From: Dehalococcoides sp. JdFR-54
GTDB taxonomy: Bacteria; Chloroflexota; Dehalococcoidia; JdFR-54
Assembly (NCBI GenBank): GCA_002011475.1
Contig: MTNP01000008.1
Span: forward strand, 4,037-68,036
DNA: 64,000 bases
Direction: 5' to 3'
Shown: in pieces, positions 6,091 to 56,230 of the stretch
How the letters are laid out: each line of letters begins with the position of its first letter
Position numbering within the stretch: position 1 is the stretch's first letter
Notes under the pieces: model-generated
Seen by the model: the letters and a program-made list of their open reading frames with translations, nothing else
Database searches by the model: none
Told to the model about the DNA's origin: nothing
Program-made: the position numbers and the translations under genes

Positions 6091-8537
6091 ATGGTCGAAG
6101 TATTAGTTCCCACAGAGATCGGCCCCGACTATGCGCCGCCAGCCAGCCCCAGGGTGGAGAGGCTGCGAGATAGCTTAGTTGCTATCAGAAGGTACGATAC
6201 CTGTAGCGAGCGGGCTTTACTGGTAACCGAGTCATATAAGGAGACGGAGGGACAGCCCTATATCATCAGGAGGGCTAAGGCCTTCGATAAGCTGCTCCGG
6301 AATATGACCATCTTCATCCTCGATGATGAGCTCATCGTCGGCCACAGGGCCAGCATGCGCAAGGGAGTGCCCTTCTGTCCAGAAATAGATGTGGACTGGA
6401 TAGAGAAGGAGCTGAACAACCGAGAGAGAGACTCCCTGAGCGGGAGCTGTCCGACCTGTATCGAATTTCTGACAGGGTTAAGGAGGACCTGAGAAAGGTC
6501 GTCATCCCCTACTGGAAGGGAAAGACGGTAAGAGACGCCCGCGATGAGCTGCTCGCCAAGGAGATCAGGCTCGCCAAGGAGAACGGCTTGTGGTTGGAAG
6601 GGGTGGATATGGGGGGCCAGGGGCGTATGATCCTGTATCCGCACCGGGTGCTGGAGGTGGGGCTCAAGGGAATCAAGGCTGAGACCCAGAAGAGGCTTGA
6701 CGAGGTGAACATCGCCCACGACCCCGAAGCCTACCGCAAGACCCTCTTCTGGAGAGCAGTGATTATGTACAGCGACGCTGCCATTGCCTTCGCCCATAGG
6801 TACGCCGAGAAGGCCAGGGAACTGGCCAAAAGGGAGTCAGATGTTCAGAGGAAGGCCGATCTGGAGAGGATAGCAGAGGTTTGCCAGTGGGTGCCCGAAA
6901 ATCCGGCCCGAACCTTCCACGAGGCCCTGCAAACCGCATGGTTCGCCTTCCTCCTCGCCGGACTCGATGACGATGCCGACGCCTTTGGCCTGGGCCGGGT
7001 GGACCAGTTCCTGTATCCCTATTATAAGAGGGACCTGGAGGAAGGGCGGCTCACCCAGGAAGAGGCCCAGGAGCTCTTGGATCTCTTCTGGATAAAGTTC
7101 AACGAGGCCCACAAGGCCCGGCCGGAAAGCCTGCCCCCGGGCAAGGACTCCCACGGTAAGATCGGCAAGGCGGGGGATCCCCTCTTCAACCATATGACCA
7201 TCGGCGGCATTACCGCAGATAGACAGGATGCCACCAATGACCTCACCTATATGATCCTCGCCGCCCGCGAGCATATCTTCCCCCTCCCCTATCCCAACCT
7301 TTCCCTCCGGGTTCACCCCCAAACCCCTAAGAGGTTGCTGATGAGAGCCCTTCAGGTCACCGCCAAGTGCGGGGGGTTACCTCAGTATTGCGGGGACAGC
7401 GGCATCATCAAGTCGCTCCTCAGCCGGGGGATATCTCTGGAGGATGCTCGCGACTACACCGCCCATGGCTGCTCCATCTTCAGCGCCCCGGGCCTTTACG
7501 GTAGATGGCATGTCACCTTCCCCAATATCACCAAGCCCCTGGAACTGGCCTTAAACAACGGGGTTGACCGACTCACTGGGGCCCGGATCGGGCTCCCCAC
7601 CGGCGACCCCACCACCTTCAGCTTCGAAGACCTGTTCCATGCCTTCACCAAGCAACTGGACTACATGCTGGAGCTGTCCTCTCAGGAGGTGGCTGTCACT
7701 CAAAAGGTCATGGAGGAGAAATTCCCCCTAGTGTTCACCTCCATCTTCGTGCCCGATTGTCTAGAGAAGGGCAGGGACATAACGGCGGGCGGTGCCCGCT
7801 ATGAGTGGGGCAACGCCATGGCGGGGATGGGAGCCATCACCGCCGGAGACTCCCTGGCGGCTATTAAGAAGCTGGTCTTCGACGAAAAGAGGGTCACCAT
7901 GTCTGAGCTGCTGGAGGCCCTGGACGCCGACTTCCAGGGCAAAGAGGAGCTGCACCAGCTTCTCCTCAACGCTCCCAAATACGGCAACGACGATGATTAC
8001 GCAGACTCCATAGTGAAAAGGGTGTGTGATACCTTTTGTCGGGAGGCCCAGAAATACCCCACCCCCAAGGGGAAGATGGAGCCGGAGTTCCATTCGGTAA
8101 CCCTGTCCGTGGCCTTGGGGTTCCACACCGCCGCTTCCCCGGACGGCAGGAGGGCCTGCAAACCCCTGAACCACGATATGTCGCCCACCGCCGGATGCGA
8201 CCGCAGCGGCCCCTCTGCAATGCTGAAATCGGCCAGCAAGATCGACCAGAGCGCCACCGTTACTAGCTCCTTGCTTATGACTGCCGACCCCAGCATAGTC
8301 TCCCGGGAACGGGATCTGGAGAAGTTCGCCAGTCTGCTGTGGACTTACTTCAATGTCCTAGACGGCACCAATGTGCAGCTCAATTTCCTATCCACGGAAA
8401 CCTTACGAGATGCCCAGCTTCACCCCGAGAAGTACCCCAACCTAGTGGTGCGGGTAGCTGGATTCAACGCCTTGTTTGTGGAGCTAAGCAAGCCTGTTCA
8501 GGATTACATTATCGAAAGGACCTGCCATAGCGTCTAG
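6091..8537 (+). pseudogene. Glycyl-radical enzyme (PFL2 / glycerol-dehydratase / CutC / BSS family) with its reading frame broken near 6425-6440. The N-terminal ~115 aa lie in one frame (6091..6492) and the remainder in another (6405..8537).
   Basis: N-terminal part (CSERALLVTESYKETEGQP...DELIVG) and the long ORF (…ARDYTAHGC…, C-terminal glycyl-radical motif VRVAGFNALFVEL) together align co-linearly with glycerol dehydratase-type GREs. The frame switch lies within/after a GAGAGAGAG tract. Confidence 0.8.
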
Positions 8538-11724: not shown

Positions 11725-11975
11725 AGGACATCCCTCCTCCGCCGACTTGGAATGGCTTGTCATCGGCTTTCGGTCTGGGCAAAAGTATAGAGGCTCACCG
11801 CCCCTGCGTCAAGTTTGTGCGTCGTCCTCCTCTATATTGTTGACAATCTTGCCTTCAATGGCTATACTCTTCATTGGCGTGCGTCCTATCCCCTGAATGC
11901 CGTTGGCGAGAAGGAAACCCTGACTGCGCCTTCAAAGGCGGAAAGTTTGTTGCACATCATAGGGAAGGAGGGGAA

Positions 11976-12899
11976 ATGAACAGGTCGAAATCGATCACCA
12001 TCATAGAGGTGGGGCCCCGGGATGGATTCCAGAACCTGGCCGATGAGATTCCCACTGCCGACAAGATCAGGATTGTGGACCTCCTAGCTGATACTGGTCT
12101 GAAGATGATCGAGACTTCATCCTTTGTTCATCCCAAATGGATACCCCAACTGAAGGATGCCGCCGAGGTATTTGCCGGCATCCATAAGAAGCCCGGCGTC
12201 TCCTATAGCGCCTTGATCCCCAATGAGAAGGGCCTGGACAGGGCCATCGAGTGTGGGGTGGGCGAGGTGGTGTTCGTGGTCGCTGCCAGCAATAGCCTGA
12301 ACCGCGCCAATCAGAACATGACCACGGAGGAATCATTGGCCTACCTGGAACCTATTGCCCAAAAGTCGAGACGACACGGCATTCGGGTGCGCGGCATTAT
12401 CGCTGCCTCCTTCGGCTGCTCCTACGAAGGAGAGGTTCCCATCAAGCAGGTCATCGACATCGGAAAGGAGCTGCGGCGGATGGGTGCCTTCGAGATCTCC
12501 CTGGCGGATTCCTTCGGGATGGCCCACCCTCGCCAGGTTAGGCAGGTGGTATCCCGGTTTCTGAGGGAAATAAACGATGTGAGCGTGGGCGTCCATTTCC
12601 ACGATACCAAGGGCACAGGCACGGCCAACGCTTACGCCGCCTTTGAGGCTGGGGTCAATGTCTTCGAGTCCTCCATCGCCGGCCTGGGGGGCTGTCCCTA
12701 TGCCTTAGGCGCCCCCGGAAATGTGGCCACAGAGAGCCTGGTTTACATGTTCCATAAGATGGGCATAGACTCCGGCATAGACCTAGACAAATTGTTGGCC
12801 TGTGCCGAAACGGTTAAGGAGATCGTGGGCTGGCCCCCCAAGACCTGGTCCTCCGAGAGAACCCGCTGGAACTGGAAGGAAGCCTCGGTGCCGGCGTAA
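11976..12899 (+). CDS. HMG-CoA-lyase-like (HMGL family) acyl-CoA lyase; could be a citramalyl-CoA-type lyase.
   Basis: ITIIEVGPRDGFQN (DRE-TIM metallolyase motif), HFHDTKGTG, GLGGCPYA. ATG at 11976 preceded by GGAAGGAGGGG. Confidence 0.8.
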   Translation: MNRSKSITIIEVGPRDGFQNLADEIPTADKIRIVDLLADTGLKMIETSSFVHPKWIPQLKDAAEVFAGIHKKPGVSYSALIPNEKGLDRAIECGVGEVVFVVAASNSLNRANQNMTTEESLAYLEPIAQKSRRHGIRVRGIIAASFGCSYEGEVPIKQVIDIGKELRRMGAFEISLADSFGMAHPRQVRQVVSRFLREINDVSVGVHFHDTKGTGTANAYAAFEAGVNVFESSIAGLGGCPYALGAPGNVATESLVYMFHKMGIDSGIDLDKLLACAETVKEIVGWPPKTWSSERTRWNWKEASVPA

Positions 12900-32024: not shown

Positions 32025-32087
32025 GGGGACGACACCTAGAACGCCCTTCGTTGCACGTTTCGATGCGAAGTGGGATTGCCTGGGAAG

Positions 32088-32543
32088 ATGGGGCAGCCAC
32101 AGATCACCATTATAACCGGGGTGTTACGAGATATCCACCACCTTGGCATAAAGGTAGTGGGATATGCTCTCCAGGAAGCTGGCTTCCGACCGGTCTTTAT
32201 CGGGGCCAGATTGGAGCAGGAAGAGTTCATCCAGGCCGCTATCGAGACCGATGCCAAGGCCATCTTTATGTCCTCCTCCAACGGCCACGCCGAGCTTGAC
32301 GCCGTCGATATGCGGGAGAAGTGCACAGAAGTAGGCCTGGGTAATATCCTGCTCTACCTGGGCGGCAATCTGGTCATCGCCGCTCAGGAACAGGACTGGA
32401 CGAGCATTGAAGGCCGATTCAAGGAGATGGGTTACGACCGGGTATATCCACCCGGGGTGAGCCCGGCACAGGTGATCCAGGACTTGAAGGCAGACCTAGC
32501 CCAACGATATGGAATATCCGAAGTGGCTAGGGACGAGCGGTGA
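32088..32543 (+). CDS. Glutamate mutase S-like B12-binding subunit, divergent copy 1. A GTG at 32070 is the alternative start.
   Basis: ITIITGVLRDIHHLG (DxHxxG) and C-terminal GYDRVYPPGVSPAQVIQDLK closely parallel GlmS (…DCHAVGN…GFDRVYPPGTSP…). Confidence 0.75.
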   Translation: MGQPQITIITGVLRDIHHLGIKVVGYALQEAGFRPVFIGARLEQEEFIQAAIETDAKAIFMSSSNGHAELDAVDMREKCTEVGLGNILLYLGGNLVIAAQEQDWTSIEGRFKEMGYDRVYPPGVSPAQVIQDLKADLAQRYGISEVARDER

Positions 32544-34000
32544 AGCTAGAGAACAGGCGCTGGACAGATGAGGAATTCGGGCAAGCCTTCCGGGAGGTAA
32601 TGTCCCTCTATCCCACGGGGCGGGAGGTGGATCTGGATGAGGCGGTGGAATACCTCAGGGCGCTGCCCCCGGAAAAGAGCGTCCCAGCAGCCTTTGACAG
32701 GGCGAAGCGGGATGGGCTGCTCCTGCTGAACCCCAGGGGAGGGGTGGCCACCCTGGAGGCCATGACCCAGCTTCTGCTCTGCCTCCAGAATGAGGGCGGC
32801 GCCGATATCCTGCCCGTAGAGCCGGACAGCTATTCGAGGCGCAATATGTTCCAGGAGGCAGCGGCTGGCCTTGAGGAGAGCCAGAGGCAGGGACGCTCCA
32901 TGCTTAACGGCTTTCCCCTGCCCATCCATGGCGTGGCCACCTGCCGGCGCCTCACCGAGTCGGTGCAGAGGCCCCTGGTCTGTCGCTCAGCGGCGCCCCG
33001 GACCCAATTCGTGAACACCATCGCCTTCGTCAGTGGCATAACCGAGGCAATTGGCAGCGCCACCGGTCTCGCCCTGTGCATGGAGTATGGCCTCGACCTG
33101 GCCCAGGCCATCCAGGATCAGCAGTACACAGCTCGGCTGGTGGGGTGGTTTCAGGAGCGGGGGGTTGCCCTGGGTTTAGATGTCAACAACACTGTAGCCG
33201 CCGGAACCATCGCCGAGCCGAGCCTTTCCATAGCCTACGGGGTCATTGATAGCCTCATCGCCGCCGAACAGGGGGCTCGGTATCAGTCCATCTCCTACCA
33301 GCCCAATCACCACTTCGTCCAGGACCTAGCTGGAATGCGGGCTCAGATGAAGCTGGCCCAGCACTATTTCACCAAGTTCGGATACGACTGGTCTGGGCTG
33401 AGCCAGGCTGTCCACCAGTGGAACGGGCCCTTCCCCCGCGACCCCGCCCGCGCCTATGCCATCATCGTCCTGTCCACAGCCATCGCCTACCTGGGCAAGG
33501 CGAGGCGTATCATGGTGAAGAGCTGCGAGGAGGGATTAGGAGTGCCCACGCCCCAGGCCAACGCCGCCGGCGTGCGCGCTACCCGCCAGGTCGTGGATAT
33601 GCTGCGGGGCCAGGAATTCCCAGAAAGCCCCCAACTCCGAGAGGAGCAGGCGATAATCGAGACCGAGGGCAGGCTGCTCATAGACAAGGTGCTGGAGGTG
33701 GGGGACGGCGATATCGCCGTAGGAGCGGTGCGGGCCCACGAGGCCGGGCTCATCGAGTTCCCCTTCAGCATTAACAAGGCTAACAAGGGACAGATGCTCC
33801 TGGCCCGGGACGCCACCGGGGCCGTCCGATTCCTAGACCCCGGCCACCTCCCCTTCCCCAAGGAGATTCGACAGTTCCACCAGGAGAAACTGCGGGAGAG
33901 ACAGCGCTCCGAGGGCCTAGAACCGCTGGAGATGCTCGTTCGGGATCTGCGGGAGGTGCGGGCTCCGTTCCCTGAGGCCAAAACAAGACGGTTGGTGTAA
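32540..34000 (+). CDS. Glutamate mutase E-like catalytic subunit, copy 1 (methylaspartate-mutase E-chain family).
   Basis: 486 aa, co-linear with Clostridium GlmE (RRWTDEEF, WPTGREVDL, GRSMLNGFP, AEQGARY, AAGVRATRQ). GTG start overlaps the copy-1 S-subunit stop (GTGA). Confidence 0.85.
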   Translation: MKLENRRWTDEEFGQAFREVMSLYPTGREVDLDEAVEYLRALPPEKSVPAAFDRAKRDGLLLLNPRGGVATLEAMTQLLLCLQNEGGADILPVEPDSYSRRNMFQEAAAGLEESQRQGRSMLNGFPLPIHGVATCRRLTESVQRPLVCRSAAPRTQFVNTIAFVSGITEAIGSATGLALCMEYGLDLAQAIQDQQYTARLVGWFQERGVALGLDVNNTVAAGTIAEPSLSIAYGVIDSLIAAEQGARYQSISYQPNHHFVQDLAGMRAQMKLAQHYFTKFGYDWSGLSQAVHQWNGPFPRDPARAYAIIVLSTAIAYLGKARRIMVKSCEEGLGVPTPQANAAGVRATRQVVDMLRGQEFPESPQLREEQAIIETEGRLLIDKVLEVGDGDIAVGAVRAHEAGLIEFPFSINKANKGQMLLARDATGAVRFLDPGHLPFPKEIRQFHQEKLRERQRSEGLEPLEMLVRDLREVRAPFPEAKTRRLV

Positions 34001-34004
34001 CAAG

Positions 34005-34418
34005 GTGATGGGCAAGACCGTAGTGATTGGGACCATAGGCAGTGACTGCCACGTGGTGGGCAACTGGATCATGGCTCGCAGCTTGGAGCAGGCGGGGTTT
34101 AAAGTGGTTCAATTGGGAGCCTGCGTCTCCCAGGAGGAGTTTATCGATGCCGCCGTGGAGGCCAAGGCCGATGCCATCTTCGTCTCTTCCCTCTATGGAA
34201 TGGGCCTGTTCGACTCTGAGGGGCTCAGGGAGAAGTGCATCGAGGCGGGGTTAAAGGACATCCTTCTCTACATCGGCGGCTACCTAGTGACGACCAGACA
34301 GGAATGGCCGGACATTGAGAAACAGTATAAGGACATCGGTTTCGATCGAGTGTATCCCCCCGAGACCAAGCCAGCGGTGGCTATCGCCGACCTGAAGCGG
34401 GATCTGGGATTATCCTAG
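34005..34418 (+). CDS. glmS: Glutamate mutase S subunit (B12-binding), canonical copy 2.
   Basis: MMGKTVVIGTIGSDCHVVGN...SSLYGMG...GFDRVYPPETKP is near-identical in pattern to the GlmS/MutS sigma subunit. Confidence 0.88.
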   Translation: MMGKTVVIGTIGSDCHVVGNWIMARSLEQAGFKVVQLGACVSQEEFIDAAVEAKADAIFVSSLYGMGLFDSEGLREKCIEAGLKDILLYIGGYLVTTRQEWPDIEKQYKDIGFDRVYPPETKPAVAIADLKRDLGLS

Positions 34419-34447
34419 CCCAGAGACCAAGAGGACAGGCAGAGCTT

Positions 34448-35881
34448 ATGGAACTGAGCAGCAGAAGATGGGATGAAGAACAGCTCCTCGAAGTGCGCAA
34501 GGAGGTCCTAGCCCAGTGGCCCACGGGCCGGGAGGTGGACCTGGATGAGGCCGTGGAATACCAGAAGAGCCTGCCCCAGGAGAAGGTCTGGGCTCGAAAA
34601 CTGACCCAGGGCTACCAGCAGGGCACGGTATTCACCATGCCCCAGGTGGGGCGGGCCACCGTGGAAGAGACGGCAACCCATATGAAGTATGTGGAAGAGG
34701 AAGCCGGGGCCGATGCCTGGCTCATCTTCATGGATACCTACACCCGAAAAGGTAGGTTTAAGGACGCCCAGCAGGGCATTGACGAGAGCATCAGGCAGGG
34801 CAGGTCCATGCTAAATGGATATCCCGCGGTTTGCCACGGTGTCAAGGGTCTGCGGCGGATTCGAGAGGTGAGCCAGGTTCCCTTCTATATCACCAATGTG
34901 GATGAAGACCCCAGGCTGGCCACGGAGATCGGGTTTGCCGGGGGCGCCACAGGATATCTGTCCTATGACCTCCACGATTTGCTCCAGCATTCCAAGAATT
35001 ACCCCCTGGATATGAGAATCCAGAACAACCAGTACGGCAACCGGCTTATCTCCTATTACGAGGAGCGGGGAGCCCCCATAGTGGCCTGGTCCTCCGGCCA
35101 CTTCAACGGCTGGGAGCCCCCTGGGCTGAAGATCCCCATAGTTATCCTGACCGCCTTGCTCACCGCGGAACAAGGGGTTAAGCATATCGGGCTTACCCTT
35201 GGCCTATGTGTACACCTGGTGCAGGACGTAGCGGCGCTGAGAGTGCTCCATGAGCTGACCAAGGAATACCTGGCTCGATTCGGCTACTCTGATGTAGCCG
35301 TATATCTCTGGACCTACCCCTTTCTGGGGGTCTGGCCCAGGGATGTGGACCGAACCGCAGCCCTCATCGCCTGGCAGGCAGCTATCAGCGTCCTTTCCGG
35401 GGTTGGCTGTATGATAGTCAAATCCCTGGACGAGGCCTACGTGGTGCCCGAAAAGGAGGGGAATGCCCATGCCGTAAAGATGGCCAAACAGATCATCGAC
35501 GTGGTCGGCAAGCAAAGGCTGGGGGAGAGCCAGGAGCTGAAGCTAGAACAGGAGATGCTCCGACGGGAGGTAAGGGCCAGCTTAGATAAAACCATCGAGC
35601 TGGGAGAGGGAGACGTGGCCATCGGGATGATGAGGGCAGTAGAGCGGGGGGTGCTGGACGGGGTCTTCTCCCCCTGGCTTCGGTGCCACAACAAGGTCCT
35701 CCCGGTGAGGGATGCCACCGGCGCCATCCGCTATCTGGACTATGGCAACGTGCCCCTGCCGCCGGAGGTGGTCGAGTACAATAACCAGAAGATCGCCGAA
35801 AGGGAGAAGCTGGAGGGCGTTAAGGCAGATATCGAGATGGTGATCCAGGACATCAGCTTCCTATCCCGGGCCCTATTCTAG
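34448..35881 (+). CDS. glmE: Glutamate mutase E subunit, copy 2.
   Basis: 477 aa co-linear with GlmE (RRWDEEQLLEVRKEV, WPTGREVDLDEAVEY, GRSMLNGYP, AEQGVKHI). Confidence 0.85.
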   Translation: MELSSRRWDEEQLLEVRKEVLAQWPTGREVDLDEAVEYQKSLPQEKVWARKLTQGYQQGTVFTMPQVGRATVEETATHMKYVEEEAGADAWLIFMDTYTRKGRFKDAQQGIDESIRQGRSMLNGYPAVCHGVKGLRRIREVSQVPFYITNVDEDPRLATEIGFAGGATGYLSYDLHDLLQHSKNYPLDMRIQNNQYGNRLISYYEERGAPIVAWSSGHFNGWEPPGLKIPIVILTALLTAEQGVKHIGLTLGLCVHLVQDVAALRVLHELTKEYLARFGYSDVAVYLWTYPFLGVWPRDVDRTAALIAWQAAISVLSGVGCMIVKSLDEAYVVPEKEGNAHAVKMAKQIIDVVGKQRLGESQELKLEQEMLRREVRASLDKTIELGEGDVAIGMMRAVERGVLDGVFSPWLRCHNKVLPVRDATGAIRYLDYGNVPLPPEVVEYNNQKIAEREKLEGVKADIEMVIQDISFLSRALF

Positions 35882-35911
35882 AGTATTTCCATCAGTAGAA
35901 GGGAGGGTTCC

Positions 35912-37291
35912 ATGGACAGCTCCTTTGAATTCGCCGAAAACATCGTGAATATCAGATACAGCGATCTGCCGGCAGAAGTTGTGGAAATCACCAAGAGGTG
36001 CATTCTGGATACTCTAGGCGTTATGCTGGCGGCGAGCAGCCTGGCGCCGGACGTAAAGGAAATTGTAGAGATGGTCAAGGAGGGCGGAGGCAAGGAGGAG
36101 AGCACCATCATCGCCTTCGGGGGGAGGGTGACGGCATGGATGGCCGCCTTCGCTAATGGAACCATGGGCCATCCCCTAGATTATGATGATACCCATGACC
36201 CCGCCATTGTCCATCCTACAGCACACACCATACCCGCCGCCTTCGCTATAGCGGAGCGAATTGGCGGAGTCAATGGCGAGGACTTTATCACCGCCGTAGC
36301 CTTAGCCAATGATATGGTATGTAGATTGGGGCTGGCCTTGAATAAAGGACTGTTCGGCTATGGCTGGCTAAGGCCAGTGGTCCTGGGGTTTTTCAGCTCT
36401 ACGGCGGCCGCCGGTAAGCTGCTGGGGCTAAACCGGGATCAGATGGTAAACGCCTTCGGTCTCGTCCTCAACCAAGTAGCCGGCAGCCTGGAGCCCGTCC
36501 ATACCCCCGGGTCTGCCTTCCGGGCGATACGGGATGCTTTCTCAGCCAAGGCGGGCGTTCTCTCCGCCCTCATGGCAGAGCGGGGTGTACCCGGCGACAG
36601 GAACAGCCTGCAGGGGAAATATGGCCTGTTCAACCTATATTTCCAGGGCGACTATGACCCCACCCGACTCACCGCCGAGCTGGGCAAAAGGTTTGAAGGG
36701 GTCAACGTCAGCTTTAAGCCTTGGCCTGCCTGTCGGAATGCGCACCCCTTCATAACCGCGACCCTGGATATCGTAAAGGGAAATGGTATCAAACCGGAGG
36801 ACACCGAAGCTATCCTGCTGGCGGGGGGCAGCTTTGCCCAATCCCTGTGTGAGCCTCTGGAGGAGAGACGGAGGCCCAAGGCAAGCATCGACGCCAAGGT
36901 CAGTTTGCCCTTTATCATCGGGGCAGCCCTGGCCCGGGGAAAGGTTGTCCTCTCGGACTTCACCCCCGCGGGCCTCAATGACCCCGCGGCTCTGGAAATG
37001 GCCCAAAAGGTGACCTTCAGGTTCGAGGAGCGCTTCAACACAAGTGGCATCGAGCCCGCCTTGGTCGAAATAAAGACCAAGGACGGCGGGACCTACTCAA
37101 AGGAAGTGGAGTTTGCCTACGGCCACCCTCAGAACCCCATGACCCTGGATGACCTGATAGCTAAGTTCAGGGATTGTGCCTCCTATTCGGTGAGGCCCCT
37201 GGCCAACGATGCCGTTGACCAAGTAATCCAGATGGTCACCAACTTGGAGGGCGTAGAGGACGTAGGTGCCGTTGTCCGCTTGCTGGGTTAG
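35912..37291 (+). CDS. MmgE/PrpD-family protein (2-methylcitrate dehydratase / cis-aconitate decarboxylase / IDS-epimerase superfamily).
   Basis: N-terminal FAENIVNIRYSDLPAEVVEITKRCILDTLGVMLAASS signature; 459 aa. Confidence 0.8.
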   Translation: MDSSFEFAENIVNIRYSDLPAEVVEITKRCILDTLGVMLAASSLAPDVKEIVEMVKEGGGKEESTIIAFGGRVTAWMAAFANGTMGHPLDYDDTHDPAIVHPTAHTIPAAFAIAERIGGVNGEDFITAVALANDMVCRLGLALNKGLFGYGWLRPVVLGFFSSTAAAGKLLGLNRDQMVNAFGLVLNQVAGSLEPVHTPGSAFRAIRDAFSAKAGVLSALMAERGVPGDRNSLQGKYGLFNLYFQGDYDPTRLTAELGKRFEGVNVSFKPWPACRNAHPFITATLDIVKGNGIKPEDTEAILLAGGSFAQSLCEPLEERRRPKASIDAKVSLPFIIGAALARGKVVLSDFTPAGLNDPAALEMAQKVTFRFEERFNTSGIEPALVEIKTKDGGTYSKEVEFAYGHPQNPMTLDDLIAKFRDCASYSVRPLANDAVDQVIQMVTNLEGVEDVGAVVRLLG

Positions 37292-37432
37292 CACCGCTGG
37301 CACCTGACCACCCTCCCTTACCGCCGGGAATCCGATTTTATGCCAAGTAAGAATGGTGGAACGACGGCTGAAAGGGGCTCTTCGTGGCACGGGCTCTTTG
37401 TCTGACTTGCCTCTGGGCGTAGGAGCGAAGGC

Positions 37433-38839
37433 ATGGGAGTCATCTTACTTATAGACTTTGGCAGCACTTATACCAAAATAAGGGCGGTAGACCTGGAAAA
37501 GGAAGAGGTGGTAGGGAGCTGCCAGGCGCCCAGCACGGTCGACACAGATATGACCATTGGGCTACAGGCGGCCTTCGATGCTCTCCTTGCTCAGACGGGC
37601 GTCGGCAACACCGATATAGAGGGCAAGCTTGCTTGTAGCAGTGCTGCCGGCGGCTTGCGCCTGGTGGCCAGTGGCCTGGTCCCCCGGCTGACCACTGAGG
37701 CGGCCAAGAGAGCTGCCCTCGGCGCCGGCGCCAAGGTCATAGGGGTCTATTCCTACCAGCTCACCCCCAAGGAGATAGCCGAGTTGGAGCAGAAGCGCCC
37801 CGACCTGGTGCTGCTGGTGGGTGGCACCGACGGCGGGAATACAGAGGTCATCCTCCACAATGCCAGGATGCTGGCCAACTCCGATCTGGTCTGCCCCATA
37901 GTGGTTGCCGGCAACAAAGTGGCCGCTGAGGAGGTCGAGCACATCCTCCACACCGCTGGCAAGTATGTGGCGGTGGCCGCTAATGTGATGCCAGAGGTCA
38001 GTCAGCTCAACGTAGAGCCGACTCGCGCCGTCATCAGAGAGATGTTTATGAGGCGCATCACCCATGGGAAGGGCCTGAACAAAGCCGAGAGACTCGTGGG
38101 CAGCATTATTATGCCCACTCCCATGGCTGTGCTCCGCGGCGCCGCCTTGCTGGCTCAAGGCACCCCAGAAGAGGCGGGGCTGGGCGACCTCATCGTTGTC
38201 GATGTTGGCGGCGCCACCACCGATGTGGATTCCCTGACGGAAGGCAACCCCACCCAGCCCGGCGTAGTGGCAAAGGGCTTGCCCGAACCCTACGCCAAGC
38301 GGACGGTGGAGGGTGACCTGGGAATTCGATACAGCGCACCCCATATCCTGGAAATCGCCGGCGAGAAGCGCCTGCGAGAGAACCTGATGGCAAGGGACGA
38401 GGGGCTCGCTGGCGACCTGGACCTAGGCGCCAAGCTGTCCTACTTGTCCGACCATATCGATTTTGTCCCCCAGACCCAGCATGACTCCCACCTCGATGTC
38501 GCCCTGGCCCGCAGCTCGGTGGAGATCGCCATGCAAAGACACGCCGGAGTGATAGAGACCTGCTATCTGCCATCGGGCACTGTCTACCTCCAGCATGGCA
38601 AGGACCTGACCCAGGTTAAGCGTGTCATCGGGACCGGCGGCATATTTAGCTACGGGCAGCACCCCCGCTGGATACTGGAGGGAACGCTATACAGCCAGCG
38701 GGAACCCCTGTCCCTCAGGCCCAAGGCGCCAGAATTCTTCATAGATGAACGATACCTGCTCTATGCCATAGGCTTGCTGGCCGAGATCGCCCCTGAGAAA
38801 GCCCTCCGGATAATGAAAAAACACCTGAGAAAGGTATAA
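37433..38839 (+). CDS. glmL: GlmL/MutL-type glutamate-mutase-associated chaperone (ASKHA-fold ATPase).
   Basis: VILLIDFGSTYTKIRAVD N-terminus and ~468 aa, as in component L of clostridial glm operons. Confidence 0.65.
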   Translation: MGVILLIDFGSTYTKIRAVDLEKEEVVGSCQAPSTVDTDMTIGLQAAFDALLAQTGVGNTDIEGKLACSSAAGGLRLVASGLVPRLTTEAAKRAALGAGAKVIGVYSYQLTPKEIAELEQKRPDLVLLVGGTDGGNTEVILHNARMLANSDLVCPIVVAGNKVAAEEVEHILHTAGKYVAVAANVMPEVSQLNVEPTRAVIREMFMRRITHGKGLNKAERLVGSIIMPTPMAVLRGAALLAQGTPEEAGLGDLIVVDVGGATTDVDSLTEGNPTQPGVVAKGLPEPYAKRTVEGDLGIRYSAPHILEIAGEKRLRENLMARDEGLAGDLDLGAKLSYLSDHIDFVPQTQHDSHLDVALARSSVEIAMQRHAGVIETCYLPSGTVYLQHGKDLTQVKRVIGTGGIFSYGQHPRWILEGTLYSQREPLSLRPKAPEFFIDERYLLYAIGLLAEIAPEKALRIMKKHLRKV

Positions 38840-45758: not shown

Positions 45759-46343
45759 TGCTTTCGCCTCCTTTGAAATCTACCGCAGAGAGCAGCCCTT
45801 ATTCCCCTACCAGTTTGCTTCCCATTTCAACCCGCAATAAGGCGTCTCTCAGACATTTAGTGTGTATTTCATTCTGCAGGCACTACCACACCCTACTAGA
45901 TATTTTATTGCACATTTCTCGCAATCAGTATAGGGATTAACAAGAGATGGCTCCGACTACAATGAGGAAGTGCACAGCCACAAGCGCCAAATCCATGTAA
46001 AGAGAGCCATGAAATGAAGACTAGCGCAACAGCGAAGCTCAAGCAAGTGCCAGTAAGGTATTTAATGGTGGGGGTATATCCACGCAAGAAGAAGCACGCG
46101 GCGGTAGCAATAACCCGGCCTGCGTCAGACCTCTTGTTGCAGATAGGGAGAAATAAGCTACAGGTTATGGTCCCTGGGGCCTCTCTGGAGTAGGATGAGA
46201 ATGACAGAGAGGAGGAAGACCAGGTGTCAGCTCAGCTCTGAGATTCGTCAAAGAAGCATCGGAAGCCCGATAGGATTGACCGCTATCCCACCAGTGAAGT
46301 ACAATGCGGTCAACATCATGACCTGGGGGGAAGGAGGGTCCAA

Positions 46344-48005: not shown

Positions 48006-48651
48006 ATCCCGAAACCAGAGGGATCGAGGGGGCTGAGCAACTGCGCATGGTCTTGTCAGCTTCTGCGTAAACACCCCTCGACTCAACATTCGTCCATATC
48101 GTTTGGTCGGCACAACAAAAGTGCAGGTTGTCTACCGGCCCGAGAAGGGCCCAGATTGTTTACTCGGGTTCTGAGTCAACAAAAGCTTAGTGTTGGTATC
48201 TATCCTCTTGGGACTGTTGACATGGGGACCTCTCGATCTCAATCAAGCCCTTAATATCGGCTGTGCTTACGGTTTTGGTTTTACGTTACTTGGAGATACG
48301 CAGAAGAGACCAACCTAATTGCGAGGGCTGCCAGGAAACAAGCTGAGGGTACCAAGAAACTTGCCGAGGAAACTGAAGGCAAAGACTAACTCTGAGCGAT
48401 GCTTCGATTTCCGTTCATGTCAGAACCTTGACTAACGGGAGTTATGTTCCTGAGGATCCAAGTCTTAGTGGAAGCGACGTGTTACCTATTCAGGTATCGT
48501 GTAGCAACAGTGGGCCTAAGTGGACGATACAAAGAACTTTTAGCCTGGCATTCAGCCCTTGCTACCCAGCCTGTTGCTCTATACCAAGTCTGATTGTATC
48601 ATAGGCGTTGCCCAGTTACAAAGGCTACTAAACGGGTGCAAAAGGTACGAT

Positions 48652-48912
48652 TTAGGGCTGTCCAGAGTCTTTGTTAACCACAGCGCTGATGCCATACACA
48701 TCCCTGAGGTTAGCATCTGTGATAACCGATGCCGGCTCTCCAACAGCAAACACGTGCCCCTTCTTGAGGAGGGCTATCTTGTCCCAAAAGCGGCAAGCTA
48801 GATTTACATCGTGCATAGCGAAGAGCTTCAGAGCCCGGTGCCAATTGCGGGTCTCTTGGAAGAGGAAGAGTGCCTCATCCCTCGTTATTTCTCTTTCCCT
48901 GGCCTCGTTCAA
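48652..48912 (-). pseudogene. Truncated remnant (C-terminal ~85 aa) of an ABC-transporter ATP-binding protein (siderophore/cobalamin-type).
   Basis: FAMHDVNLACRFWDKIALLKKGHVFAVGEPASVITDANLRDVYG matches the H-loop to C-terminus of FecE/BtuD-type ATPases. Walker A/Q-loop/signature region is absent. Confidence 0.55.
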
Positions 48913-48945
48913 TAAGCTGTCTTATCCTGTCTGGCGAGCCCTTGT

Positions 48946-48975
48946 TTGACACCCTAGCCAAGGCACACTTATAAT
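48946..48975 (+). promoter_or_regulatory. Consensus sigma-70 promoter TTGACA-N18-TATAAT placing the TSS 1-3 nt before the larA-like ATG (leaderless mRNA).
   Basis: TTGACA 48946-48951; TATAAT 48970-48975; ATG at 48984; no SD sequence. Confidence 0.5.
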
Positions 48976-48983
48976 TTTCCAAT

Positions 48984-50435
48984 ATGGAAAACTGGGTAGG
49001 TCATACGGCTCAAGAGCTGACTAGAATAGCTTATGGCACAGGGTTTCTCGAGGCGAGACTGCCAGAGAGGACTAAGATATTAAAGCCTCCCCCCTCCCTG
49101 CCAGCCCTGCCAGATGTGGCCGAGGCCGTAAAGCAGGCCTTGGATTCGCCCCTAAACCACGAACCCCTATCCAAGCTGGTGGGCCCAAAGTTAAAAGTTG
49201 CCATCGCTTTCGATGACCCCTGTATGCCCATTCTACCTCCCAAGCAGCCAGATTTTAGGGAAACCACTATCAAGATCTTGCTCCGGGAATTGGAGCGCCT
49301 TGGTGTCCCCAGGCACAATATTCAGCTTATTTGTGCCAATGCCCTACATCGGAAATGGACTCAGCGGGAACTGGCTACCATCCTGGGGGAAGAGCTGGTT
49401 CTCTCCTTTGGGCCTCACCGTCTGCGTTGCCACGATGCCGAGGATAAGGACGATATCGTTTGTGTGGGCGAGACACCCCGGGGTATGCTGGTGGAGGTGA
49501 GCAAGGCGGTTACGGAATCCGACCAGCTAATCTATGTCAATGTCAATTCTCAGCACTTTAATGGCGGTTGGAAGTCCATAGCAGTGGGCCTTTCCAGCTA
49601 CAACAGCATAAGGCAGCACCATCGCCCCTTTCCCAGGGCCAGCGGCAAGTCCGTGATGGACTACAGGCGCTCCTCGTTCCAGAAGATAATCTGGGAGATG
49701 GGCGACGTGGTCGCCGCCGAGCTGGCCAAGAAGGGGAGACGCATCTTCACCATTGAATCGGTGCCCACCAATCGTATACCGGCGGAAACGGCCGCCGTGT
49801 TCGCCGGCAATATCCCGGACGTCCACGAAAAGACCATCGAGATGCTCCAAAGGCAACTGGTGATAGAGGTGAGAGGGCAGGTGGATGTAGCCATCTTCGG
49901 CCTCTCGCCCCACATGGATCCCTATTCCAAGCTATCCTTTATGAACCCCATCCTGGTGCGCAATACAGCCCTTTCTTACGCCTTTGGCCTGTATCAGGGC
50001 AAGCCTTTGATCAGAGAAGGGGGCATCGCCATTTTTATTCACCCCTGCCCGCGGGCATTCGATGATATTCGCTTCCCCTCATATATAGCGATGTACGAGG
50101 AGATACTGCCCCGAACTCAAGATCCTTTCGAGATTTGGGATGTCTACTCCGAGGACTATGCCCATCGCCCCGAGTTTATTCACCACTATCGTTACCGCTA
50201 TAGCTATCACGGGGCACACCCCCTCATTCTGTGGGGCCAGGGCGCCTATGCCTTGAGGCATCTGGGCAAAGTATTCCTGGCCGGGGCCCAGGACCCGGAT
50301 GCTGCCCGCCTGATGGGCTTCGAGCCATTCCCCACGGTGGCGGAGGCCATTGCCGAGGCAGAGAGGCTGCTGGGCAAGGACTGCTCTATAGCTTACGCCT
50401 CGATGCCTCCCGCCTTCATAATTAGCGTGGAGTAG
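48984..50435 (+). CDS. LarA-family (nickel-pincer cofactor dependent 2-hydroxyacid racemase/epimerase) homologue.
   Basis: KVAIAFDDPCMP (cf. LarA IVIISSDHTRP) and NSQHFNGGWKS (cf. ESHFFAGFSGGRK, Lys that tethers the NPN cofactor); 483 aa. Confidence 0.65.
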   Translation: MENWVGHTAQELTRIAYGTGFLEARLPERTKILKPPPSLPALPDVAEAVKQALDSPLNHEPLSKLVGPKLKVAIAFDDPCMPILPPKQPDFRETTIKILLRELERLGVPRHNIQLICANALHRKWTQRELATILGEELVLSFGPHRLRCHDAEDKDDIVCVGETPRGMLVEVSKAVTESDQLIYVNVNSQHFNGGWKSIAVGLSSYNSIRQHHRPFPRASGKSVMDYRRSSFQKIIWEMGDVVAAELAKKGRRIFTIESVPTNRIPAETAAVFAGNIPDVHEKTIEMLQRQLVIEVRGQVDVAIFGLSPHMDPYSKLSFMNPILVRNTALSYAFGLYQGKPLIREGGIAIFIHPCPRAFDDIRFPSYIAMYEEILPRTQDPFEIWDVYSEDYAHRPEFIHHYRYRYSYHGAHPLILWGQGAYALRHLGKVFLAGAQDPDAARLMGFEPFPTVAEAIAEAERLLGKDCSIAYASMPPAFIISVE

Positions 50436-50512
50436 GTATTAATGAGATTCTGCATCTGTAGCGAGATATTTTGAGGGTGGGAGTTGGGGGGTATTTTCAT
50501 AAGGAGGCAAGG

Positions 50513-51319
50513 GTGACACTATCCATGTTTGACCTGACAGATAGGGTAGCCATTGTTACCGGCAGCGGGAGGGGCATCGGTAAGGGGATTGCCCTGGGCT
50601 TGGCTGAGGCAGGCGCCACGGTAGTGGTAACCTCTCGCACCCCCGCTGAAATCGAGGCTACAGCCAGCGAGATCAGAGATAAGGGGGGCACGGCTCTGGC
50701 TATCGCCACGGACATGATGGACCCTGAGCAGGTATCCAATTTGGTCCAGAAGACGGTGAGCGAGTTTGGCAAGCTGGATATTATGGTCAACAATGCCGGC
50801 GGCAGCACTGGAATCAGCCCGGCACTAGAGCTGAGCCTGGAGGACTGGGAAGGGAACCTTCGCTGGAACCTGACCAGCGCCTTCTTGGGATGCCAGGCTG
50901 CAGCCAAGATAATGATACCGCAGAGAAGGGGCAGCATTATCAACATCGGCTCCATCGCTGCCATCGCCCCTCAGCCTGGCCGAGTCCACTATTGCGCCGC
51001 CAAGGCGGGTATAGACATAATGACCAAGACGCTAGCTATGGAATGGGGCCGCTATAACGTTCGGGTTAATGCCATAAGACCGGGCACCATATGGACCTCG
51101 GCACTGGAACGGAACTACCAGAGATTCCCGGAGGATTACGATTTCCGACTCCGGCTAACCCCGCTGGGGCGTCACGGGACGCCCCGGGACCTGGTAGGGG
51201 TCACCATTTTCTTGGCCTCCGACGCCTCAGCCTTTGTTACCGGGGCCTCTTTCGCAGTGGACGGGGGGCTCCCCATAGTGGCCTCCGTGCGCAAAGATGA
51301 CCCCTCATCATTCTGGTAG
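50513..51319 (+). CDS. Short-chain dehydrogenase/reductase (FabG-like).
   Basis: VAIVTGSGRGIGKG, NNAG, catalytic S...YxxxK. GTG start 5 nt after AAGGAGG; an ATG at 50528 is the alternative. Confidence 0.88.
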   Translation: MTLSMFDLTDRVAIVTGSGRGIGKGIALGLAEAGATVVVTSRTPAEIEATASEIRDKGGTALAIATDMMDPEQVSNLVQKTVSEFGKLDIMVNNAGGSTGISPALELSLEDWEGNLRWNLTSAFLGCQAAAKIMIPQRRGSIINIGSIAAIAPQPGRVHYCAAKAGIDIMTKTLAMEWGRYNVRVNAIRPGTIWTSALERNYQRFPEDYDFRLRLTPLGRHGTPRDLVGVTIFLASDASAFVTGASFAVDGGLPIVASVRKDDPSSFW

Positions 51320-51400: not shown

Positions 51401-51429
51401 TTGACAAACTGGCATACCCGTGGTATCCT
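51401..51429 (+). promoter_or_regulatory. Near-consensus sigma-70 promoter TTGACA-N17-TATCCT upstream of the second TRAP SBP; its -35 context (CTTGACAAA) matches the promoter at 2739.
   Basis: Read directly: TTGACA 51401-51406, TATCCT 51424-51429. Confidence 0.45.
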
Positions 51430-56014: not shown

Positions 56015-56230
56015 AGGACTTTCCCTGAAACCGTTTTGCCTCGCCCAGATGAAACAGGAGTGGGAATATTATACAATAAGTTCAGTCAATGCTGTAAAGG
56101 GAACTAATGCCGAGACGCCTCAGCTTGCATTGACCCCTTATGCAACGTGAAAACGGATTGACACAAAAGCAAGTCTGGCATAAACTTATAATGCTGGCCG
56201 GACTGCGGCCAAGCTATAAACCATCAAAGA

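Follow-up and report, generated by a model that had tools for sequence, protein, structure and literature searches.

A LarA-superfamily gene of an uncharacterised clade and its consensus promoter abutting the start codon in a Dehalococcoidia genome

The LarA-type gene and its promoter

In a 64,000-nucleotide stretch of contig MTNP01000008.1 from Dehalococcoides sp. JdFR-54 (in the following, the window), we analyzed a gene for a protein of the LarA superfamily together with the promoter in front of it. The coding sequence lies at 48984..50435 on the forward strand, starts with ATG and specifies 483 residues, which match exactly an NCBI entry named 'DUF2088 domain-containing protein [Dehalococcoidia bacterium]' (contig DUEO01000008.1, GCA_011170395.1). 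Its reading frame is shut just 5' by an in-frame TAA within the -10 box, and no ATG, GTG or TTG was found between 48984 and the conserved 'IAYG' strand (residues 15-18), which leaves 48984 as the sole canonical start.

The promoter comprises a -35 hexamer TTGACA (48946..48951, forward strand) and, after an 18-nt spacer, a -10 hexamer TATAAT (48970..48975, forward strand) that ends 8 nt (tttccaat) before the ATG. This pair is the only 12/12 match to the sigma-70 consensus in the entire window, scanned on both strands, where 0.011 such matches would be expected by chance from the window's own hexamer counts. No Shine-Dalgarno (SD) motif was found in the 20 nt 5' of the ATG, while an SD is visible for about two thirds of the genes in the window. 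The sequence confirms these promoter features as a preliminary description of the locus had given them, including the 8-nt distance and the missing SD.

The LarA-type gene is followed on the same strand by a gene for a generic short-chain dehydrogenase/reductase (SDR; 50502..51319 including its SD), which encodes 268 residues from a GTG at 50513 and has an AGGAGG of its own at 50502-50507. The SDR passes just a broad 'glucose 1-dehydrogenase' subfamily model. It is the sole tight partner of the LarA-type gene and probably co-transcribed with it, since the 77-nt gap between them holds no terminator-like site.

Family placement and fold

The N-terminal part of the protein (residues 17-215) matches the Pfam family Lar_N (PF09861) with an E-value of 5.1e-40 and 137.3 bits against a cutoff of 23.3, and no match to LarA_C was found at E <= 1. 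The best curated model by far was NCBIfam NF052592, 'NPN-dependent hydroxyacid isomerase, LarAH14/15/16 family' (NPN, nickel-pincer nucleotide), which covers groups 14-16 of Desguin et al. 2020 (PMC7583248). The protein reaches 455.5 bits on it, below the cutoff of 740, in two stretches that skip model positions ~256-303. In contrast, the models for lactate racemase, malate racemase (LarAH5/6) and LarAH10 gave 94-116 bits against cutoffs of 460-540 (460-500 for lactate and malate racemase), about a fifth of what they require. Nine diverse relatives of the protein scored 405-465 bits on NF052592 and skipped the same positions; from this we place the whole clade, with a typical length of ~478 residues, as a sister of the curated LarAH14/15/16 family and not as a member of it. 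A literature search found no characterisation of this ~478-residue clade.

In sequence searches against the PDB, the best matches, both over the whole length, were LarA_Sp from Streptococcus plurextorum (9Q2U, 1.2e-43) and LarA_Bw from Blautia wexlerae (9Q3J, 4.6e-34), which represent a subfamily with a 'single catalytic histidine' (PMC12611868). Classical LarA and Mar2 align with the window protein over the N-domain alone. An AlphaFold (AF2) model of the protein, computed with 42 homologues as input, had a mean predicted local distance difference test score (pLDDT) of 90.6 and a predicted template-modelling score (pTM) of 0.90. With this model as query, Foldseek returned 9q3k, a further LarA_Sp structure, as top fold match (TM 0.84/0.85), followed by 9q3j (TM 0.77/0.82); LarA_Ip, LarA_Lp and Mar2 were lower (TM 0.62-0.70), and the similarity to the GntE2 structure 4NAR was TM 0.56. 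LarA_Sp and LarA_Bw thus represent the closest relatives of known structure in both sequence and fold and have in common with the window protein a two-domain layout with an enlarged C-domain, yet they are only 23-25% identical to it, and their glycolysis-type gene neighbours are not seen here.

With the classical enzymes (lactate racemase LarA of Lactiplantibacillus plantarum, 5HUQ; Mar1/2, Hgr, GntE and LarA_Ip) the window protein has in common the Lar_N domain, the overall fold, the cofactor-tethering lysine, the nickel-ligand histidine and the first catalytic histidine. In contrast to classical LarA, it has no match to LarA_C and is about 55 residues longer. Judged by sequence and predicted fold, the gene encodes an atypical LarA-superfamily protein of an uncharacterised clade.

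Active-site residues

Residue conservation was counted over 42 homologues from several phyla with 46-77% identity. Positions were numbered via alignments to L. plantarum LarA and LarA_Sp, and the residue roles were taken from PMC11770544 and PMC12611868.

The residues that hold the cofactor are conserved throughout. The segment H191-F-N-G-G-W-K197 (49554..49574, forward strand) ends in the equivalent of the lysine that tethers the cofactor through a thioamide, Lys184 in LarA and Lys195 in LarA_Sp; its GGWK (residues 194-197, 49563-49574), which aligns with GGRK of LarA, is invariant in 42/42 homologues. This bears out the preliminary description, which had recognised a LarA homologue by the lysine of its GGxK loop. 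Both residues of H212-H213 (49617..49622, forward strand) are invariant, and H213 corresponds to the nickel ligand His200 of LarA and His211 of LarA_Sp. For the latter, PMC12611868 gives His221 in its section 2.5 and His211 in its section 2.4; counting along the 9Q2U alignment, 211 is correct. Asp78 corresponds to Asp72 of LarA and Asp73 of LarA_Sp, which contact the cofactor ribose, and is likewise invariant.

Of the catalytic residues, His122 (in LHRK; 49347..49349, forward strand) aligns with the catalytic base, His108 in LarA and His115 in LarA_Sp, and is invariant in 42/42. Further invariant residues are found in the C-domain: Tyr314 (49923..49925, forward strand) corresponds to LarA_Sp Tyr307, which lies beside the ligand (PMC12611868, section 2.4), and the two histidines of H409-G-A-H412 (50208..50219, forward strand) correspond to LarA_Sp His398 and His401, the second of which contacts the ligand density. 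The ligand-site residues of LarA_Sp, His115, Tyr307 and His401, are matched in this way by H122, Y314 and H412 in a common fold, and the dimer residue Arg431 of LarA_Sp has its equivalent in Arg442. His409 and His412 are candidates for the missing second acid/base.

The clade departs from its relatives at two positions. The motif D77-D78-P-C-M81-P ('DDPCMP', residues 77-82; 49212..49229, forward strand), in which both aspartates are invariant, aligns by its D78-P-C-M81-P with D72-H-T-R75-P of LarA; the alteration of the DHTRP-type motif had been noticed before and is confirmed. Met81 takes the place of Arg75 in LarA and Lys76 in LarA_Sp, which contact the cofactor phosphate and the substrate carboxylate, and the clade has G, I, M, A or S here, never Arg or Lys. 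The other position is that of His174, the second catalytic base of LarA. It aligns with His191 across a 4-residue deletion and is occupied in the 42 homologues by Pro (28), His (7), Ala (4) or Gln (3). The LarAH14-16 groups have also been described as lacking an equivalent of His174. In LarA_Sp and LarA_Bw an invariant Asn stands at this position, to which no Asn of the window protein aligns because the loop that carries it is 4 residues shorter than in LarA. A further difference to LarA_Sp concerns its His306, which is not conserved in the clade (P/Y/H).

Going by these alignments, the clade keeps all residues that hold the cofactor and one base. Of the two residues by which classical two-base hydroxyacid racemases are defined, it has no arginine and no conserved second histidine; the hallmarks of the LarA_Sp/LarA_Bw subfamily, the invariant Asn and Lys76, are missing as well.

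Possible function

Nickel-pincer enzymes are few, and every LarA homologue characterised so far racemises or epimerises 2-hydroxyacids. The LarA branches that lack one catalytic histidine are the likeliest place for new nickel-pincer chemistry, a question flagged as open in the field (PMC7583248, PMC12611868). For LarAH groups without His174, which are known, it has been proposed that the hydride shifts to an adjacent site (PMC7583248). Desguin et al. 2020 (PMC7583248) found the LarAH14 representative, from Frankia, to have no activity on lactate, 2-hydroxyisovalerate, 2-hydroxyisocaproate, malate, 2-hydroxyglutarate, phenyllactate and gluconate. LarA_Sp carries a covalently bound NPN and a ligand of ~316 Da; it does not racemise lactate, and its substrates may be carbohydrates (Gatreddi et al. 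2025, PMC12611868). Loading LarA_Bw with NPN in vivo was unsuccessful (PMC12611868).

The explanation that we favor, and consider fairly probable, is that of an NPN enzyme of an uncharacterised LarA clade, expressed with the SDR from a consensus promoter that abuts the start codon. In such an enzyme, His122 would deprotonate the substrate hydroxyl in a proton-coupled hydride transfer to the NPN cofactor. With the help of a C-domain acid (Tyr314, His409 or His412) the hydride would then be returned, leading to epimerisation, or it might alternatively be returned to the neighboring carbon, leading to isomerisation. The substrate would probably be no simple 2-hydroxy-mono- or dicarboxylate. Since the clade retains all residues that hold the cofactor but has neither a conserved second histidine nor the arginine, we tentatively consider that it may catalyze a nickel-pincer reaction other than racemisation, for example an intramolecular hydride shift (hydroxy/oxo isomerisation) or the epimerisation of a non-carboxylate or sugar-type substrate, via His122 together with His409, His412 or Tyr314.

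Several points weigh against this assignment. We infer the NPN dependence of the window protein from conserved residues only. The protein itself has a histidine, H191, aligned to His174, as in 7 of the 42 relatives, and may therefore use a two-histidine mechanism. The invariant C-domain residues H394, R395, R403, H409, H412 and R326 could supply a second base and a carboxylate site, so that the protein may be a racemase or epimerase of some hydroxy acid. The gene neighborhoods of the homologues give no consistent hint. Finally, genes for the synthesis of the cofactor were not detected nearby: tblastn searches with L. plantarum LarB, LarC1, LarC2 and LarE (queries from plasmid NZ_CP055122.1) yielded nothing at E <= 1e-3 in the window and 98 other loci, 1.5 Mb in all, and no larB, larC or larE was found within +/-10 kb of ~80 homologues. 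In agreement with the preliminary description, LarB, LarC and LarE domains were also absent from Pfam scans of the 47 long open reading frames (ORFs) of the window, as well as from the precomputed Pfam annotation of contig positions 1-77207. The tblastn result is a meaningful negative because the LarE query detects homologues across phyla; in a far larger database, it matched plasmids of Clostridium, Streptomyces and Rhizobium at 29-34% identity with E-values of 1e-13 to 1e-40. As to linkage, 2 of 3 inspected plasmid-borne records of canonical larA had no adjacent larBCE. Linkage is therefore not to be expected, and the local absence is not informative on the whole genome.

These findings bear on a rather improbable alternative, namely that the protein has kept the LarA fold but given up the nickel-pincer cofactor, being cofactor-free, dependent on another ligand or non-catalytic, in a genome without larBCE. 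The absence of larB, larC and larE from 77 kb of the contig and from the surroundings of ~80 homologues would agree with it, as would the missing phosphate-binding arginine and the failure to load LarA_Bw with NPN. Such a loss would make it hard to explain why Lys197, His213, Asp78 and His122 do not vary between phyla in homologues of 46-77% identity; moreover, LarA_Sp, the closest structure, carries covalently bound NPN, and canonical plasmid larA is often unlinked to larBCE too, so that local absence says little. Somewhat less improbable, and still unlikely in our view, is the conventional two-base NPN 2-hydroxyacid racemase or epimerase of the preliminary description, in which the altered DxTRP motif merely shifts the specificity to malate, 2-hydroxyglutarate or citramalate and the product feeds the C4/C5-dicarboxylate cluster of the window. 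The window is indeed rich in dicarboxylate and coenzyme A (CoA)-ester genes (glutamate-mutase-like, MmgE/PrpD, class I fumarase, CoA transferases, HGD-D, TRAP), His191 aligns with His174, and the gene follows GlcD-type oxidases of hydroxyacids, dependent on flavin adenine dinucleotide (FAD), in two distant loci, one of which also has a canonical LarA and EtfAB. Against this stand the low scores on the racemase models, Met at the position of Arg75, a histidine that is not conserved in the clade, and nearest relatives without known activity: the LarAH14 representative is inactive on malate, 2-hydroxyglutarate and lactate, and LarA_Sp on lactate (PMC7583248, PMC12611868). The proposed substrates find no support in this. 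The link to the neighboring pathway is weak as well, since the gene lies outside the dicarboxylate operons, has ~980 nt of decayed DNA and a terminator-like hairpin between itself and ilvD, and has the generic SDR as its sole tight partner; nor are neighborhoods conserved across 44 non-redundant groups of homologues.

For annotation, this means that the protein should not be called a lactate or malate racemase. We regard the gene as a sound annotation of a solitary NPN-type enzyme, not as a surprising discovery. It adds a well-delimited and abundant clade (at least 452 clusters at 90% identity; 190 representative genomes), for which the list of invariant residues and the confident model are useful in choosing expression targets.

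Predicted transcription start and a candidate operator

In the published signature of leaderless genes, the -10 box lies 6-8 nt from the start codon, and a TAtaaT-type signal of this kind has been reported for Chloroflexi (PMC6028130, PMC3160421). The LarA-type gene shows this signature, with TATAAT 8 nt from the ATG and no SD within 20 nt upstream. By geometry, transcription is predicted to start on the forward strand at one of the positions 48981..48984, purines 6-9 nt past the -10 box, which would give a leader of 0-3 nt. RNA folding is consistent with such a start: in an RNA whose first base is at 48982-48984 the 5' AUGGAAAAC is left unpaired, and an RNA initiated upstream buries the AUG in a hairpin of -15.9 kcal/mol (z = -1.9).

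This hairpin arises from a perfect 17-bp palindrome at 48975..48991 (TTTTCCAATATGGAAAA), whose 7-nt arms TTTTCCA and TGGAAAA are 100% complementary and flank a central ATA. The final base of the -10 box, the predicted start site and the ATG all fall within the palindrome, which is a candidate operator that may bind a repressor. Neither an exact nor a second good copy of it was found elsewhere in the window, for which reason no regulon can be inferred from it, and no regulator gene adjoins it.

To judge the promoter, we considered all sites in the window that score at least 10/12 against the sigma-70 consensus. There are 19 of these, and 15 are intergenic, even though only a small part of the window is intergenic; from this concentration we conclude that the genome uses such promoters. 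The promoters of this metagenome-assembled genome (MAG) of the Dehalococcoidia look E. coli-like and can be predicted. Further examples, which nearly always have an exact TTGACA, are found at 11840-11868, 31983-31955, 46276-46305, 51401-51429 and 56158-56186. The other predicted promoters lie 20-216 nt from the next start codon. An apparent second leaderless candidate, a site 5 nt before a TTG at 11874, was ruled out, as the real start of that gene is an ATG at 11977 with an SD. With this case dissolved and the others 20-216 nt away, the LarA-type gene is the sole leaderless candidate among ~14 predicted intergenic promoters.

We therefore picture expression as follows. The consensus sigma-70 promoter would fire 0-3 nt before the AUG and yield a leaderless or near-leaderless bicistronic mRNA, of which the first cistron would initiate without an SD and the second, the generic SDR, would use its canonical AGGAGG; a repressor may bind the palindrome over the start site. 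The mRNA of the LarA-type gene is, on balance, probably leaderless or has a leader of 1-3 nt. Two points count against it: the start site is one that we infer from sequence geometry, and the 18-nt spacer and the 8-nt gap from -10 box to ATG both come near the upper limit of what is usual. Leaderless expression, as the preliminary description had put it, is thus plausible in that the promoter geometry is as expected, with the mRNA start itself being a prediction.

The competing possibility is that the mRNA is not leaderless, the consensus match being silent or merely an internal promoter, and that translation starts SD-independently on the AU-rich tataattttccaat of a longer leader without SD. 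The 8-nt spacing, slightly above the modal 6-7 nt, would be in keeping with this, and so would a Dehalococcoidia/SAR202 subgroup of homologues with TATAAT ~33 nt before the ATG and no SD, from which the lineage appears to tolerate short SD-less leaders. We judge it to be a good deal less probable, because a terminator-like hairpin follows ilvD, no other promoter-like site of at least 9/12 exists on the forward strand between 48006 and 48946, the AUG of an upstream-initiated RNA is folded into a stable hairpin, and a perfect 12/12 intergenic match is expected so rarely by chance.

In comparison with known leaderless bacterial genes (TANNNT ~10 nt from the start, Zheng et al. 2011, PMC3160421; 'group C' of GeneMarkS-2, PMC6028130), the LarA-type gene is alike in its -10 box 8 nt from the AUG, its lack of an SD and its unstructured 5' end. 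It differs in being an isolated case in an SD-using genome and not part of a genome-wide habit, and in a layout that is not conserved among homologues.

The 5' end across homologues

Among 70 homologous loci with a usable start, 50 have an SD (44 with at least 5 nt, 6 with a 4-nt core). Only 2 of the 20 without SD, both from Actinomycetota, have a -10-like box 7 nt upstream. The leaderless layout, itself plausible, is specific to this genome and not a trait of the family.

The three closest relatives (L001, L019 and L021; 75-77% identity) have a conserved promoter, TTGACA-N17-TACACT in L001 and L021 and TTGACG-N17-TATACT in L019, and a leader of ~55 nt with the SD GGGGGTGA in L001 and L019 and GGGGGTAA in L021. 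No similarity of the window's 5' region to this promoter-leader region could be demonstrated, as Smith-Waterman scores were at the shuffle null. A MAFFT alignment had hinted at an ancestral ATG that changed to ACG with a shift of the promoter; given these scores and an anchored ungapped identity of just 39-46% over 28 nt, we dropped this idea. The N-terminus of the window protein is 6-7 residues longer than the family norm, and its residues 1-8 are disordered in the AlphaFold model. The longer N-terminus and the lack of similarity to the 5' regions of the relatives lead us to conclude that the 5' end was remodelled in this lineage. The layout would be a small, tidy case of one lineage having gone over from SD-led to leaderless initiation; such cases are common.

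The homologues with TATAAT ~33 nt before the ATG and no SD, which implies short SD-less leaders, are those of SAR202-type Dehalococcoidia (L079, L084, L085, L088, L089, L090, L095 and L096).

Genomic context

Upstream, the nearest gene is ilvD; with 779 bits, above the cutoff of 644, its product is a bona fide dihydroxy-acid dehydratase. A role of this IlvD in a sugar-acid pathway was ruled out, as it passes the dihydroxy-acid dehydratase models and fails those for arabinonate, xylonate and phosphogluconate dehydratases. The terminator-like hairpin with T-tract (48137..48161, forward strand) lies 130 nt after ilvD and speaks against read-through of ilvD transcripts into the LarA-type gene.

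The ~980-nt gap between the two genes (48006-48983) is non-coding, with a GC content of 0.495 compared to 0.575 for the window. At 48652-48830 on the reverse strand it contains the last ~55 codons of an ATP-binding cassette (ABC) ATPase of the HmuV/FhuC type (E 5.6e-6 to PDB 5b57), fused to unrelated N-terminal sequence in an 86-residue ORF; the rest of the gene is missing. Relic and low GC content together suggest that DNA immediately upstream of the LarA-type gene was once deleted or rearranged, in agreement with a remodelled 5' end. A scan of the whole window with Rfam gave no match, and hence no riboswitch or known RNA in the gap. On the other side, the SDR is followed by dctP, which has its own promoter.

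The window as a whole is a large organic-acid/CoA-ester island with two TRAP systems, a glycyl-radical enzyme and its activase, a class I fumarase, CoA ligases and transferases, a citryl/malyl-CoA-lyase-like gene, methylmalonyl-CoA mutase, two glutamate-mutase E-like genes with MutL and MutS, MmgE/PrpD, fumarate reductase and dehydratase subunits of the HGD-D type. The LarA-type gene is embedded in none of the operons of this island.

Two parts of the island deserve mention. The glycyl-radical enzyme appears split into a 133-residue PFL-like N-terminal fragment (6091-6492, forward strand) and a 649-residue body (6588-8537, forward strand), whose Pfam match begins at profile position 153; this may reflect a frameshift, a pseudogene or an assembly error. 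At 32070-38839, tandem paralogues of the methylaspartate-mutase E chain (32540-34000 and 34448-35881) are found with a B12-binding subunit, MmgE/PrpD and a MutL-type reactivase, and a fumarate-reductase-like pair of flavoprotein and Fe-S protein lies divergently upstream. The duplication of this cluster is unusual.

To survey the neighborhoods of the homologues, we called ORFs in 87 loci, 82 of which gave a LarA-homologue ORF, and clustered the products, obtaining the 44 non-redundant groups mentioned above. Across these, no conserved neighbor of the LarA-type gene was found. The only recurrent neighbors were an SDR within 6 kb (8/44 groups), an ABC ATPase (5/44) and a 3-hydroxyacyl-CoA-dehydrogenase-like protein (4/44), and the tight same-strand pairing with an SDR seen in the window is unique among the surveyed loci. 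With recurrent neighbors this few and themes inconsistent, we dropped an assignment of function by association.

Individual loci nevertheless show metabolic genes close by. GlcD-type FAD oxidases stand directly upstream in one locus of the Desulfatiglandales and one of the Chloroflexota; in the latter (L010), which has three of these oxidases, the clade member is also accompanied by a canonical LarA, EtfAB and a CoA transferase. In most loci of the SAR202 subgroup, the homologue lies between an upstream same-strand gene of 309-344 residues and a convergent gene of ~350 residues. In L085, the sole SAR202 locus scanned, the upstream gene is a ribokinase that passes TIGR02152, and the convergent gene encodes an L-rhamnonate-dehydratase-like protein of the enolase superfamily that scores below cutoff. 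Other loci have zinc-dependent alcohol dehydrogenases (Zn-ADH), NMO-type proteins and other oxidoreductases nearby.

Size and spread of the clade

A search of a large protein database yielded the 452 clusters at E <= 1e-10. Among the clusters listed, almost all have 474-483 residues and are 56-75% identical to the window protein. In species-representative genomes we found 190 relatives, all from MAGs, which belong to Desulfobacterota, Dadabacteria, Binatia, Dehalococcoidia/SAR202, Actinomycetota, Rokubacteria, Spirochaetota, Nitrospinota and Bathyarchaeia.

The nearest relatives with a named source (L019-L021, 76-77% identity) are from MAGs of Desulfobacteraceae and Syntrophobacterales, and those from other Dehalococcoidia (L042-L045, L061-L071) are at most 58% identical. 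This taxonomic pattern hints at a lateral transfer between phyla or a binning problem. The composition of the LarA-type gene, with a GC content of 0.56 and of 0.67 at third codon positions (GC3), is slightly low, lies within the range of the window and is not decisive on horizontal transfer.

In two loci from Chloroflexota/Dehalococcoidales, the clade member is preceded on its own strand by a second, shorter LarA homologue of 420-423 residues (L010, 2448-3719; L051, 4838-6100), which directly adjoins it in L051. The short copy in L010 has both Lar_N and LarA_C, and the one in L051 reaches 191 bits on the malate racemase model, which is below cutoff.

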